Notes: generated from the letters alone by a model not told the origin. Positions 23,994 to 28,860 are shown, counted from the stretch's first letter. The stretch: 64,000 bases of DNA from a virus (IMGVR_UViG_3300042288_001626); one strand, 5' to 3'. Made by a program: numbers and translations.

Positions 23994-24035
23994 AAAATAA
24001 AAAGCCCCTGCAAGTGGGGGGAGCTTGCAGAGGCT
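23994..24035 (-). terminator. Rho-independent terminator ending the AAA+/DUF1257 operon
   Basis: AGCCTCTGCAAG-loop-CTTGCAGGGGCT followed by TTTTATTTT. Confidence 0.8.
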
Positions 24036-24046
24036 GTTGGGAGTAC

Positions 24047-24310
24047 TCAGCTTGCGGCTAGGGCAAACTGATCCTCAATTTTTCTATTCAAGTATTCTCT
24101 TTCAGCATCTATAACGAGTCCTCGGACAAGATTGGAGGCAATTACGTTACCTTCAAGATCTGTGGCTACCCACAGTTGCTGATCGTGATCAAACTCTACA
24201 TTAGATACACGAGTCACCTGTTTTGCGCCGAGGGTGTTCAATCTATCTACCAGATCATTAGCAAGACACTGAACATTTCCTTCTCTATCAATATAGATGG
24301 TTGCGTTCAT
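24047..24310 (-). CDS. Small protein typical of DUF2997/DUF1257 clusters
   Basis: IYIDREGNVQCL...RVSNVEF...W...AEREYL pattern; cluster context. Confidence 0.65.
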   Translation of the reverse strand: MNATIYIDREGNVQCLANDLVDRLNTLGAKQVTRVSNVEFDHDQQLWVATDLEGNVIASNLVRGLVIDAEREYLNRKIEDQFALAAS

Positions 24311-24510
24311 CGCTGCTCTAGATGCTCATCAATTTCCAGAGAAATAGGCTCCTCGTATTCTTCTGTCATTCTACGCGTACTTTCGTCCGCAAGACCCAGA
24401 GACTTTTCAATAAACTTTGTAGCCTCTAGACAAGAGGAGCCGTACCCTTCAACTTTATCAATCAACACATCTCCATTTTTGCTTATCTTAAATATAATTT
24501 GTTTAGACAT
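24307..24510 (-). CDS. DUF2997-like protein
   Basis: IIFKISKNGDV...VEGYGSSCLEATKFIEKSLG...T.EY. Confidence 0.8.
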   Translation of the reverse strand: MSKQIIFKISKNGDVLIDKVEGYGSSCLEATKFIEKSLGLADESTRRMTEEYEEPISLEIDEHLEQR

Positions 24511-24814
24511 AAATCATCGAATTTCTCAAGAATTTACCGTTCTTGTCATACTTGAATTTAATTCTTACGGTGTGTTTCTTTTCCATAGGGCAACTCACCA
24601 CATAGGTAACAGTCGCTTGTGCAGTGTCGGGGGAGTCTGCGTCATCGACTGGCTTGATGTGATGATAAGGAATATGCACCTCGCATGGAGTATTTTTTTC
24701 TCCTGGAGGGGTCGCAGATTCCTTGGTCAAAATATCTTTAATTGACCTAGCCAACTTTGATTTAATTAATTCGAATTCTTTATGTTCAATTTCCATAGTT
24801 TTACTTTTCTGCAA
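24503..24814 (-). CDS. Hypothetical protein
   Basis: 103-aa ORF overlapping both neighbours. Confidence 0.6.
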   Translation of the reverse strand: MQKSKTMEIEHKEFELIKSKLARSIKDILTKESATPPGEKNTPCEVHIPYHHIKPVDDADSPDTAQATVTYVVSCPMEKKHTVRIKFKYDKNGKFLRNSMIYV

Positions 24815-25190
24815 TTACAACCAACTCACCTGTAGCCAATTCCTCAACCTTATAAGTAAGATCTTCGTCATACATAAACTTCTTGAGTTCTGTAAGTGCG
24901 TAGTTCTGTTTAATCTTTTGCATTTTTGGTCCAAGCTGCTTTTCTATGCTGCTATCAAAGAAATCGCAAACGAAAAACGCATTACCTGCCTGGTCTACAT
25001 TTATACCTACATCGAACCCAGAAGCCTTGGGGTTCAATGCAACATACTGATGCACATCCTCCTTTCTTGGGTCTGAGTGATATGTCCGACACTTGCTGTT
25101 TTGTACAATCTTCCATCCCAGCGACTCAAACTGAGACAGTAAGTTTGTAATGTTTTTAAACTGTGTTGTTATGTTTACAGCGTGACTCAT
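24801..25190 (-). CDS. DUF1257 (Ycf35)-like protein; likely start ATG 25190
   Basis: MSH...TQFKN...L...LGW...DVG...D.FD...IKQNYA; ATGA overlap with the upstream stop. Confidence 0.8.
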   Translation of the reverse strand: MSHAVNITTQFKNITNLLSQFESLGWKIVQNSKCRTYHSDPRKEDVHQYVALNPKASGFDVGINVDQAGNAFFVCDFFDSSIEKQLGPKMQKIKQNYALTELKKFMYDEDLTYKVEELATGELVVIAEK

Positions 25191-26487: not shown

Positions 26488-26509
26488 ATTTATTATTGGT
26501 TGGTGTTTG

Positions 26510-28096
26510 TTAGATGTCTTCGTTGCTGATGGCGATAGATAACTTTCTCATGTTTTTTTGTACATCTGCTACAGGGTCTCCTTGGGAAGAAACCATGACT
26601 AGCTTGCCTTGTGCCTGTCTGCGCATGATTTTCAAATCTTCTTCATGGCTCGTAGCGAACGGAATAAACTCAGCCAATACTTCAAGCACGTGAGTATCTG
26701 CTACTTCTTCACCAACATCAAACGCTTTATACAGCGCATCTTTAAAAACTTCTTCAATCTCAGCACCAGTAAAATTATCTGAACCAGTCACCAGAGTCTT
26801 TATGCTGAAATCTTTTGGATTTCTTCCGTATTTCTTAATTACTACATTGAAGATTTCTTTGCGCTCCTCAGCGTTAGGTAAATCTACCCAGAACAACTGG
26901 TCAAAACGACCTTTACGGATCAGGGCGGCAGGAAGCAGAGTATGGTTGTTCGTCGTAGCTACAATGAATGCAGGGTTATTGCGGTCATTCAGCCAAGTCA
27001 GGAACGTACCGAAGATACGGCTGCTTACCCCACTGTCTCCTCCGCCGGAAACAGCATTGTTACTTAGAGACTTTTCAATCTCGTCAATAAGAATAACACA
27101 CTTACCTATAGACTCTACGGTTTTGATAACCTCCCGCATGTTCTTTTCGCTATTACCCACAAGCGAATCAAAAACACTACCTACATCAAGAGAGAACAAA
27201 GGGCAGTCAAACTCTCGAGCGATAGCCTTGCAAATAAGGCTTTTGCCTGTGCCTGGAACACTTGCAAGAAGCATACCTTTAGGCATAGGAAGTTTGTAGT
27301 CTCTGGCAGACTTGGAGTATGCGTTTTTCCTGGCGGTCAACCACTTCTTCAGTCCGGACATGCCGCCAACATTATCAAACGAAATGTTGGGTTCCATATA
27401 AGTAAGCAGACCGTTCTTTTTAAGCTGACTTATTTTTTCTTGAAAGACCGCCTCTACAAACCTCTGATTAAAGGCTTTTGCGCTGATGTAGGCCATAGCA
27501 AAAGCGTTCTCAACCTCGATGTTAGTCATACCTTTCGCTGCTTCAACAGAAGCCTCGACAATACCTGTAGAGATTTCGATCAGCGGCTGATTGCTTTCTG
27601 CCAACTCCTTATTGATTGAGTTTTTGATAAACATCAAGCGCTCTTCAATAGAGGCGGAATCAGGTAGAGTATAGTCAAGCAATTGAATTTCCTTAACAAG
27701 CTCTCCTGGTACAGCAAACTTATGCCCTACGAAAATAATCATGTTACGAAGCCTTTTAAGCTTGTTCCATGCATTCCTGAGCAAGCGGATGTTAATTACC
27801 TTGTCGAAGTGCAGATGAAAGTCGCGCAGAACAAAAATGTTGTTTGCGTGCTTGTACTTCTGAATATACTCTAAAAGATTTACCGTTTGCCTTGTTTCTT
27901 CTGGATGGGCGAGCTGATTTTCACCTGCTCTGCACACCAGTCCTTCCTGAGCATCCCATTCATGGATTGTGATTCCTGGCTCTCTCTCCCTCAGGGTCAG
28001 CAGATCTCTTGAAAACCTTGTTTCTTCGTGGGTGAGCACAAATAGACCAGGGTAACAGGCTTTGTGGTAGTTGTGTATTTTAGTCGTGAAGTCCAT
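26510..28096 (-). CDS. Ycf46-like AAA+ ATPase (degenerate N-terminal AAA domain plus active domain)
   Basis: THEETR, FVLRDFH, NVGGMSGLKKWL, VPGTGKS, IDEIEK, ATTNN, RKGRFD. Confidence 0.9.
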   Translation of the reverse strand: MDFTTKIHNYHKACYPGLFVLTHEETRFSRDLLTLREREPGITIHEWDAQEGLVCRAGENQLAHPEETRQTVNLLEYIQKYKHANNIFVLRDFHLHFDKVINIRLLRNAWNKLKRLRNMIIFVGHKFAVPGELVKEIQLLDYTLPDSASIEERLMFIKNSINKELAESNQPLIEISTGIVEASVEAAKGMTNIEVENAFAMAYISAKAFNQRFVEAVFQEKISQLKKNGLLTYMEPNISFDNVGGMSGLKKWLTARKNAYSKSARDYKLPMPKGMLLASVPGTGKSLICKAIAREFDCPLFSLDVGSVFDSLVGNSEKNMREVIKTVESIGKCVILIDEIEKSLSNNAVSGGGDSGVSSRIFGTFLTWLNDRNNPAFIVATTNNHTLLPAALIRKGRFDQLFWVDLPNAEERKEIFNVVIKKYGRNPKDFSIKTLVTGSDNFTGAEIEEVFKDALYKAFDVGEEVADTHVLEVLAEFIPFATSHEEDLKIMRRQAQGKLVMVSSQGDPVADVQKNMRKLSIAISNEDI

Positions 28097-28712
28097 GCGA
28101 TGATATGGGTGTAACTATGAAGTTATTTTTCTTTACTTGCTTGTTAATCTCGGTGTCTTTTACGTTAAAAAACCCGAGCATGTCTGACATCATTGCACAG
28201 CGCAACGAAGTCCCGGTCCTGTTGGCCCGGCTACGGTAATATTGCACCTCAGAAGGATGCATATTTTTTTCAATCCAAGAAGCAGCTATCTGAAGAGGGT
28301 GTTCTTCAGCAATAGGCTGTACTGCTGGATGGACTGTTGTTATATCAGTAGAAGCCGATATTGGTCTTCTTGTTACAGTAACTGGTTCCTTTAAGCTCTC
28401 GTGAGACTTTATAACGGCAGCTAGCGTTGTCTTATTCTTTGACCCTTTCGGTCTGCCTCTTTTTTTAGCCTCTGCAACAGGTTGTGCAGCGGCTAGCTCT
28501 GGTTGCACATAAACCTTATTCTTTGACCCTTTCGGTCTGCCTCTTTTTTTAGCTATAGGAGCAGGCTCAGGGGATACTGGAGCTGTATCGGTTTTGGGTT
28601 TGTTTTTAGATCCTTTTGGGCGTCCTCTTTTCTTAACAGGGATACAAGCAGAACTACTCGACGTTGTCTGGGTCTTCTTCTTGTAGCTCCCTTTTCCTAA
28701 TTTTTCTCTCAT
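28080..28712 (-). CDS. AT-hook repeat DNA-binding protein
   Basis: Three KKRGRPKGSKNK repeats followed by a small globular C-terminal domain. Confidence 0.8.
   Translation of the reverse strand: MREKLGKGSYKKKTQTTSSSSACIPVKKRGRPKGSKNKPKTDTAPVSPEPAPIAKKRGRPKGSKNKVYVQPELAAAQPVAEAKKRGRPKGSKNKTTLAAVIKSHESLKEPVTVTRRPISASTDITTVHPAVQPIAEEHPLQIAASWIEKNMHPSEVQYYRSRANRTGTSLRCAMMSDMLGFFNVKDTEINKQVKKNNFIVTPISSHGLHD
28431..28553. repeat. Exact 39-bp direct repeat (28431-28469 and 28515-28553) encoding two AT-hooks
   Basis: cttattctttgaccctttcggtctgcctctttttttagc occurs twice. Confidence 0.95.
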
Positions 28713-28821
28713 GAGATTTTGCTACGTCGGTATAGTACTTATTTTCAAGTTTTACTCTCTCAATACGTTTATACTGATTGCGTCTATCTCTGGTCTGATA
28801 TTTTCTTATGGTTCTACTCAT
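28654..28821 (-). CDS. 55-aa highly basic ORF (not in the track), overlapping the AT-hook gene start
   Basis: MSRTIRKYQTRDRRNQYKRIERVKLENKYYTDVAKSHERKIRKRELQEEDPDNVE* begins just downstream of a promoter. Confidence 0.5.
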   Translation of the reverse strand: MSRTIRKYQTRDRRNQYKRIERVKLENKYYTDVAKSHERKIRKRELQEEDPDNVE

Positions 28822-28831
28822 AATACCTTCA

Positions 28832-28860
28832 AGTATAGCATACTCGTTAGTATTTGTAGA
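28832..28860 (-). promoter_or_regulatory. Extended -10 sigma70-type promoter of the AT-hook/AAA+ operon
   Basis: TCTACA-N17-TATACT with TG at -15/-14. Confidence 0.6.

Follow-up and report, generated by a model that had tools for sequence, protein, structure and literature searches.

Ycf46 and Ycf35 belong to the conserved 'ycf' orphans of cyanobacteria and algal plastids, and to our knowledge their biochemical role has been open for decades. In Synechocystis, ycf46 forms part of slr0373-slr0374(ycf46)-slr0376, a general stress operon that responds to many stresses and whose function is unknown (PMC7496141); canonical Ycf35 has been published together with DUF2997 in a DUF2997-ycf35-fed7 cluster, also of unknown function (PMC4284462). 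The literature searched describes neither a phage or plasmid module of this kind nor DUF3150, and it connects Ycf46 with Ycf35 only by listing both in plastid genomes. Here we describe a predicted nine-gene operon (g1 to g9, Table 1) in IMGVR_UViG_3300042288_001626, analysed as one stretch of 64,000 nucleotides (nt; hereafter the window). Its host element is a large uncultured tailed phage, and near-identical DNA is present in lake-water metagenome runs from many studies. Its ATPase belongs to the Ycf46-like family and is accompanied by DUF1257 and DUF2997 partners; what is new is the form found on phages and plasmids, which includes DUF3150, the g9 family, an AT-hook protein and partners tagged by a C-terminal tail. 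With a probability of about one half, we regard it as the phage version of a widespread mobile/cellular module built around a Ycf46-family, Cdc48-like ATPase with DUF1257, DUF2997, g9 and, here, DUF3150.

The original prediction had called the ATPase g3 Ycf46-type, and the comparison with cyanobacteria supports this name. Among 61 Cyanobacteriota genomes, 41 encode a full-length homologue aligned over query residues ~10-500 at 36-38% identity (E 1e-85 to 1e-107), DUF1257 being found in 32 and DUF2997 in 37 of the genomes. In 26 of the 41 genomes with a homologue, an ATPase copy has DUF1257 or DUF2997 encoded no more than 1 kb away, and five genomes contain the complete AAA+/DUF1257/DUF2997 triad within 5 kb. 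The commonest form is a three-gene operon in which a small protein and the ATPase are followed directly downstream by a DUF1257 paralogue, a shape that fits the description of slr0373-0374-0376 (PMC7496141). We infer that the sampled ATPase and DUF1257-paralogue genes correspond to slr0374 and slr0376. Full-length homology and the matching cyanobacterial operon together justify the 'Ycf46-like' label. The phage locus thus resembles the described cyanobacterial systems in its ATPase, homologous over both the N-domain and the AAA module, in the DUF1257-family gene found directly downstream of the cyanobacterial ATPase, and in the pairing of DUF2997 with DUF1257. It differs from them in holding all partners in one operon, without a ferredoxin, and in adding DUF3150, g9, the AT-hook protein, a basic peptide and a tail-tagged protein, d1; the phage operon unites partners that cyanobacteria keep in two places, canonical Ycf35 lying apart from the ATPase and beside DUF2997. 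The small protein encoded upstream of the cyanobacterial ATPase (114-127 amino acids, aa) has a conserved ending, ..[L/V][V/I]PC-COOH, in three genomes (L137:2699-3043, L138:4434-4817 and L140:1861-2205).

Outside the cyanobacteria, 80 chromosomal loci from Sericytochromatia, Chloroflexota, Myxococcota and Armatimonadota had DUF1257 or DUF2997 within 8 kb of the ATPase in only four cases. A 420-aa protein without a Pfam family precedes the ATPase in 27 of these 80 loci. In a genome of the Anaerolineae, a radical-SAM protein (Radical_SAM + Fer4_12; L095:13617-15129) is encoded immediately upstream of a DUF1257-DUF2997 pair, 5 kb downstream of the ATPase.

Within the phage clade, 36 related IMG/VR loci share the order terminase, g1 to g9, variable genes and Mre11, with g7 missing in five. 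This synteny can be explained by shared ancestry, and more distant elements were therefore compared. A search for the module at the DNA level in cultured phages gave no match. At the level of gene families, four cultured siphoviruses of 79-110 kb (Aeromonas HJ05, Rhizobium L338C, Rhodobacter RcMenchie and Agrobacterium JP1) carry the ATPase, an unrelated protein of 200-240 aa, DUF1257 and DUF2997, in this order, with a g9 relative after DUF2997 in HJ05 and L338C. In Pseudomonas phage Pa BHU-15 (Samunavirus) the order is AAA+, proteins of 199 and 319 aa, DUF1257, DUF2997 and a g9 relative. A 90-kb metagenomic contig (L048) encodes DUF3150, AAA+, DUF1257 and DUF2997 without g9, and a 128-kb contig (L049) encodes DUF2997, DUF1257 and AAA+. 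Megaplasmids of Candidatus Manganitrophus (Nitrospirota) carry AAA+, DUF1257, DUF2997, DUF3150 and an 84-aa g9-like gene, i.e., all five of the families concerned. As these five families survive the shuffling of gene order on unrelated replicons, the conserved core comprises five of the nine genes, namely the AAA+ ATPase, DUF3150, DUF1257, DUF2997 and g9. The AT-hook protein g2, the basic peptide g1, and g5 and g7 are local additions. The predicted co-occurrence of AAA+, DUF1257 and DUF2997 was thereby recovered in cultured phages, metagenomic contigs, plasmids and cyanobacteria; the genes recur elsewhere in other orders, and both the 'small partner' g9 and DUF3150 fall within the core. The proposal of an uncharacterised system also stands, in the form of a real conserved ATPase module that the searched literature does not describe.

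The ATPase consists of a family-specific N-domain (residues 1-240), one AAA module and a C-terminal tail containing MRKLSI. Its family is large, with 4498 representatives at E<=1e-30 and more than 150 full-length members. The nearest solved relatives of the AAA module are the D2 domains of Cdc48, p97 and VAT (E 1e-44 to 1e-49). The motifs of the classical AAA+ clade are all present: Walker A GxxGxGK[ST], Walker B hhhhDE, the sensor-1 Asn and the two Arg of the second region of homology; the corresponding residues K285, D338/E339, N383, R394 and R397 are invariant or nearly so among 132 family representatives. The protein is thus a predicted ATPase with intact catalytic motifs. Profile searches with the 240-residue N-domain gave no Pfam or PDB match, and tblastn with this domain alone returned one weak match. 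Hints of a degenerate AAA fold, similar to replication factor C or to i-AAA proteins, were sub-threshold (E ~0.4) and are not claimed. Complex predictions of the N-domain with DUF2997 and DUF1257 did not separate the control from the test.

In some relatives (L031-L036; for example L033:6001-8425 and L036:4055-6732) the ATPase gene is split by an inserted open reading frame (ORF), which encodes an HNH endonuclease after residue ~338 in L033 and a LAGLIDADG endonuclease after residue ~288 in L036. These inserts amount to two independent homing-endonuclease invasions, by intron or free-standing gene; invasion of this kind is usual in phage genes that are conserved and important. Several long ATPase representatives (752-949 aa), matched in two stretches that break near residue 335, may be intein-bearing forms.

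Among the partner proteins, the original domain calls passed Pfam for AAA, DUF3150 and DUF2997; the DUF1257 call on g6 did not, and has indirect support. The DUF3150 match of g4 scores 56.2 bits against a cut-off of 24.9 and covers profile positions 6-202 of 257, and the hidden Markov model (HMM) of the g4 family recovers the DUF3150 genes of L048 (5.7e-34) and of the Manganitrophus plasmid (8.4e-21); a tblastn search of phages with g4 was negative. The fold model of g4 is poor (predicted local distance difference test, pLDDT, 62.6), its N-domain being nearest to viral DUF3150 clusters (template-modelling score, TM, 0.40). Its PDB matches are generic four-helix bundles, and a weak resemblance to GvpL/GvpF (TM 0.25-0.36) is given no weight. 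DUF2997 in g8 scores 31.7 bits against 24.1, with an invariant motif EG-x-G-x-x-C (E21, G22, G24 and C27), and the g8 HMM matches the DUF2997 genes of five cultured phages. For g9, the HMM recovers the gene that follows DUF2997 in Rhizobium L338C (5.8e-8), Pseudomonas Pa BHU-15 (1.7e-7) and Aeromonas HJ05 (4.7e-7), and the 84-aa gene of the Manganitrophus plasmid (7e-10).

The g6 protein itself gave no Pfam match to DUF1257 (PF06868) even at E<=1, the gathering threshold being 22.2 bits. Among 16 members of its family, five match PF06868 (best 5.7e-4), and the family HMM in turn matches Pfam-passing DUF1257 proteins of L338C (3.3e-5), Pa BHU-15 and HJ05; a broadened HMM reaches the plasmid gene annotated as DUF1257 at 3.2e-22. 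The AlphaFold2 model of g6 (pLDDT 81.6) superposes with TM 0.85 on a viral cluster of which 49% is PF06868 and with TM 0.68 on a 'putative DUF1257' cluster. A Foldseek search of the PDB with this model gave nothing significant, the best hits being similar to the BamC N-domain (E ~0.04). Taken together, relatives, fold and profile matches indirectly point to g6 as a divergent member of DUF1257. An N-terminal Met-Ser-His is invariant in the DUF1257 proteins aligned here, and also found in the Manganitrophus plasmid copy; several polar residues (D40, H47, D60 and C75-D76) are invariant too; the g6 model is least confident at its N-terminus, which would fit a segment ordered only in a complex.

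The remaining small proteins are less informative. The g2 protein contains three exact copies of KKRGRPKGSKNK, an R-G-R-P core with basic flanks, and is on this basis a predicted AT-hook protein, as originally proposed; the Pfam part of that call fell short, AT_hook (PF02178) scoring 14.3 bits against a cut-off of 17.4. The number of AT-hooks per g2 relative ranges from 0 to 3, three relatives having no recognisable core, and the g2 family HMM matches the L040 relative alone (1e-11, and 5e-9 in a second search). The g1 gene is present in most of the 36 related IMG/VR loci and absent from the distant modules. No family was found for g1, g5 or g7, and the small module proteins had no counterpart in PHROGs, NCBIfam or PADLOC. 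A feature search of the Atlas turned up nothing usable for g5 and, for g7, only weak indications of a fold, which is possibly NTF2/SnoaL-like.

A terminal peptide is shared by the motor and two partner proteins. The DUF3150 protein g4 ends in YFRKLSV-COOH and the ATPase carries MRKLSI thirteen residues from its end, both being invariant across the clade; the g4 and d1 endings have the form [F/H]RKLx[V/L] and so copy the ATPase peptide. Within the last 16 residues, R[KR][LIVA]x[LIVT] is found only in g3, g4 and d1 among the 62 ORFs of at least 100 aa in the window. Conservation is slight in the body of d1, which tblastn finds in few relatives; yet of the 23 distinct tails of the ORF that follows g9 in relatives, 18 have the ending [H/F/Y]R[K/R]Lx[V/I/L]. 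In L040, a 46%-identical relative, the tails have changed together, to ARKIKT in the ATPase and FRKIKV in the DUF3150 protein. In the siphoviruses, the middle proteins, which are unrelated, have the endings RNRKLKL, RRGRKITI, ARRAVKL and RKRRLRLS. Among the 132 ATPase representatives, 27 carry the motif in their last 25 aa, as compared with 1% of 25-aa windows from the protein bodies, an approximately twenty-fold enrichment in the tail. Cyanobacterial ATPases end in AEYQR[L/M]EF-COOH, a tail related to MRKLSI. In view of its ending, we propose that d1 is a tail-tagged partner of the system, encoded outside the proposed operon. In HJ05, three proteins encoded outside the module (55933-56802, 73884-76370 and 76645-77631) have C-terminal motifs of the RRI[T/V][I/L] type, similar to RRAIRT in the tail of the ATPase; these proteins could be additional tail-tagged partners, or the motifs could simply reflect a composition rich in Arg.

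If the module works as we envisage, the ATPase would form a Cdc48-like ring that remodels or unfolds proteins, with DUF1257, DUF2997 and g9 as constant partner subunits acting as receptor or regulator; the adaptor role originally proposed for the small DUFs is likewise hypothetical. Proteins would be brought to this machine through [aromatic/His]-R-[K/R]-L-x-[V/I/L]-COOH, the carriers here being g4 and d1; DUF3150 and d1 would dock through the peptide as clients, adaptors or regulators, and the ATPase tail MRKLSI would mimic the tag and may compete for the same site or auto-regulate. In this phage clade, the AT-hook protein g2 may bring the machine to AT-rich DNA close to the downstream genes for replication and recombination. 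The biological role would probably be early host takeover or replication support.

In its mode of action, such a system would most resemble segregases of the Cdc48/p97 type, whose cofactors bind through motifs, or unfoldases directed by tags, without being a member of either. The AAA module is closest to the D2 domains of Cdc48, p97 and VAT, the N-domain could dock partners, and short terminal peptides occur in both, here common to motor and partners. The tail of p97 binds PUB/PUL cofactors, and proteasomal ATPases have HbYX tails. Unlike these segregases, the phage ATPase has a single AAA module, an unrelated N-domain and an aliphatic pore loop 1, its partners come from families without solved structures, and there is no ubiquitin-like or protease partner. 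With Mpa/ARC-Pup and ClpX-SspB/ssrA the phage module would share the concept of a short client peptide tag read by an AAA+ ring or an adaptor; it differs in having neither homology to their tags and adaptors nor a protease gene. The AAA domain of g3 also scores on models of IetA from the IetAS anti-phage system (PADLOC 1.3e-27; NCBIfam 1.3e-23, 83.7 bits against a cut-off of 510). This match covers the generic AAA domain only (residues 263-480) and not the full-length phage ATPase, IetS protease is absent, and the locus lies in a phage and not in a defence island. No other module protein matched any PADLOC model convincingly.

Several observations weigh against a single conserved machine that is addressed by a peptide. 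Two Myxococcota genomes have the ATPase without DUF1257 and DUF2997, and mycobacteriophage Corndog has it without a detectable DUF2997. By hmmsearch and hhalign, g4 (DUF3150) has no detectable homology to the siphoviral middle proteins of 200-240 aa, and g1, g2, g5 and g7 are confined to this phage clade. Pore loop 1 of the ATPase has aliphatic residues ([L/I]VG) in place of aromatic ones, as would suit threading that is weak or non-processive, and therefore favours remodelling over processive unfolding. Only 20% of the ATPase representatives match the strict tail motif, which is short and basic. In HJ05 the motif occurs in 5 of 108 ORFs, four of them outside the module, so that it may be less exclusive elsewhere or its count inflated by composition; the four may also be further clients. 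Finally, the cyanobacterial Ycf46 stress operon has been linked to carbon uptake, not to DNA (PMC7496141).

The original proposal was a remodelling machine with a DNA/nucleoid substrate. On this reading the main job of the ATPase would be to act on DNA-bound proteins, such as host nucleoid proteins or replication and recombination complexes, to which g2 and the basic peptide g1 would guide it. The g2 gene, with its three exact AT-hooks, overlaps the ATPase start, and the neighbourhood is suggestive: Mre11, Rad50-like, UvdE and helicase genes here, DNA ligase and RecA flanking the module in L049, helicase and DNA polymerase following it in L338C, and a SNF2-family helicase directly after the ATPase in 25 of the 80 chromosomal loci (e.g., L051:1738-3588 and L095:9615-11510). 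However, the substrate claim leans on g1 and g2, found in this clade alone and with AT-hook numbers as low as zero among relatives, the conserved core includes no DNA-binding family, and the literature does not tie the cyanobacterial operon to DNA (PMC7496141). We consider this proposal weak and rather unlikely. A counter-defence or host-takeover device, in which host proteins such as defence complexes or stress factors are unfolded or sequestered by the ATPase, with fast-evolving tail-tagged proteins like d1 serving as variable target binders, would account for the presence of the module on phages and plasmids, for the fast evolution of the d1 body behind a fixed tail, for the plasmid copy beside JAB, HNH and Fic genes, and for a promoter of early, sigma-70 type. 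It seems to us unlikely, since nothing beyond the generic IetA AAA domain matched a known defence or anti-defence family and cyanobacteria carry this core on the chromosome, where it appears to serve housekeeping or stress functions.

Another alternative is a general stress, proteostasis or redox module carried as auxiliary genes, acting in the infected cell as the cyanobacterial Ycf46 operon and the Ycf35/DUF2997/ferredoxin cluster do and with no phage-specific substrate. The stress-responsive three-gene operon with its DUF1257 paralogue (PMC7496141), the DUF2997-Ycf35-fed7 cluster (PMC4284462) and the radical-SAM gene adjoining DUF1257/DUF2997 in the Anaerolineae genome would all fit. Yet the cultured carrier phages infect non-phototrophic hosts, only mobile elements have DUF3150, g9 and the tail-tagged proteins, and the locus has neither a ferredoxin nor a radical-SAM gene, which makes this explanation improbable. 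It is highly improbable that there is no system at all, and that unrelated small early genes merely share a transcript with the ATPase. Phage early regions are mosaic, and g1, g5 and g7 have no relatives outside the clade, but the co-occurrence data contradict this explanation: the five families are found together in at least three gene orders on unrelated replicons, and their adjacency in cyanobacteria is far above chance (~0.001 per pair in a 5-Mb genome). We retain the Ycf46-family module with its constant partners as the preferred reading.

The nine ORFs pack into 24047-28821 of the minus strand, with gaps or overlaps of at most 22 nt, and diverge from the terminase gene (29003-30721, +), a distant relative of terminases from 180-187 kb Salmonella and Vibrio phages; IMG/VR contigs related to the window reach ~200 kb. 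Nine overlapping or abutting genes had been predicted, and this count is confirmed with two starts corrected. That of g6 was set at ATG 25190, which gives the same length as in all relatives, and not at GTG 25232; g7 probably starts at M7, its seventh codon. The arrangement suggests tight translational coupling, including that of g2 to the ATPase, whose start it overlaps by 17 nt.

The single extended -10 promoter and the single terminator of the original prediction were both recovered. The promoter reads TCTACA-17-TG-TATACT, with the blocks GTCTACAAA and TGCTATACT separated by 12 nt. A consensus promoter scan alone was at chance level (20 sites in the window vs 18.7 in shuffles); in an upstream alignment of 15 relatives, GTCTACAAA and TGnTAnAnT are invariant and the spacer of 12-13 nt between them varies, and the combined pattern occurs once in the window vs 0 expected. 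The site is a clear phylogenetic footprint and has the appearance of an early promoter of the sigma-70 type. GTCTACAAA as a repeated phage promoter motif was rejected, its count in the window being at chance level. A longer invariant block, CAAGA..AAAAA..ATTATAGnGTCTACAAA, lies upstream of the -35-like element (region 28816-28925, -); better conserved than a sigma-70 -35 box requires, it may be a regulator site. The -10 element ends ~11 nt before the g1 ATG, with no Shine-Dalgarno sequence, so that the leader would be very short and the mRNA nearly leaderless. At the other end, the terminator combines a 12-bp stem and a 9-nt loop with a U-run (-19.9 kcal/mol) and was skipped by the automatic scan because its loop exceeds 8 nt; in 13 of 27 relatives a hairpin with a T-run occupies this position, its stem formed by other sequences. 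As d1 begins directly after the U-tract, which leaves no space for a separate promoter, the terminator is probably leaky, with likely read-through into d1. Calling the operon self-contained is thus accurate only in part: its promoter footprint and terminator are conserved, but d1 abuts the U-tract and shares the tail motif of g4 and the ATPase.

Table 1. Features of the operon and of the adjoining gene d1 in the 64-kb window.
Feature	Position	Strand	Basis
Extended -10 promoter	28832-28860	-	Invariant blocks in 15 relatives; single occurrence in the window
g1, very basic peptide, 55 aa	28654-28821	-	ORF; phage-clade-specific, no family match
g2, putative AT-hook protein, 210 aa	28080-28712	-	Three KKRGRPKGSKNK copies and a conserved ~70-aa C-terminal domain
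g3, Ycf46-like AAA+ ATPase (predicted), 528 aa	26510-28096	-	PF00004 1.5e-28; full-length phrog_8638 match 4e-122
g4, DUF3150-family protein, 333 aa	25486-26487	-	PF11348 4.2e-15; ends YFRKLSV-COOH
g5, acidic protein, 98 aa	25187-25483	-	Phage-clade-specific; no known family
g6, putative divergent DUF1257 (Ycf35-like) protein, 129 aa	24801-25190	-	Relatives, fold and profile matches
g7, accessory protein, 97-103 aa	24503-24814	-	Missing from 5 related loci
g8, DUF2997 protein, 67 aa	24307-24510	-	PF11211 1.4e-7
g9, unnamed family, 87 aa	24047-24310	-	Profile matches after DUF2997 in distant modules
Intrinsic terminator	23994-24035	-	12-bp stem and U-run; position kept in 13/27 relatives
d1, fast-evolving protein, 115 aa, ends HRKLIL-COOH	23646-23993	-	Past the terminator; carries the tail motif

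Downstream of the operon, the minus strand continues with a repair and recombination block (10194-23649) that encodes a dual-specificity-phosphatase-like protein (23107-23649), Mre11/SbcD-like (22006-23094), the UV endonuclease UvdE (14528-15451), a Rad50/SbcC-like SMC_N protein (11885-13927) and a ResIII/XPB-like helicase (10194-11654). Beyond the terminase lies a gene for a second AAA-domain protein of 379 aa (30718-31857, -; PF00004 3.8e-10), with an architecture unrelated to that of g3.

The ATPase, DUF1257 and DUF2997 thus make up one mobile gene module that links phages, plasmids and cyanobacterial chromosomes, and DUF3150 and one more small family, g9, belong to its mobile-element version. 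The terminal peptide shared by the partners and the ATPase makes the function experimentally approachable, and cultured phages of tractable hosts (Pseudomonas, Aeromonas, Rhizobium and Agrobacterium) carry the core and are possible genetic models. As a tentative extension, doubtful at present, we suggest a peptide address code of the Ycf46 family, in which a C-terminal [F/H/Y]-R-[K/R]-L-x-[V/I/L]-COOH would mark proteins for the ATPase with DUF1257, DUF2997 and g9, the tail of the ATPase itself would serve as a decoy, and mobile elements would evolve tagged proteins such as d1 and DUF3150 to exploit the machine. If this is true, the partners of Ycf46 and Ycf35 would be readable directly from genome sequences.

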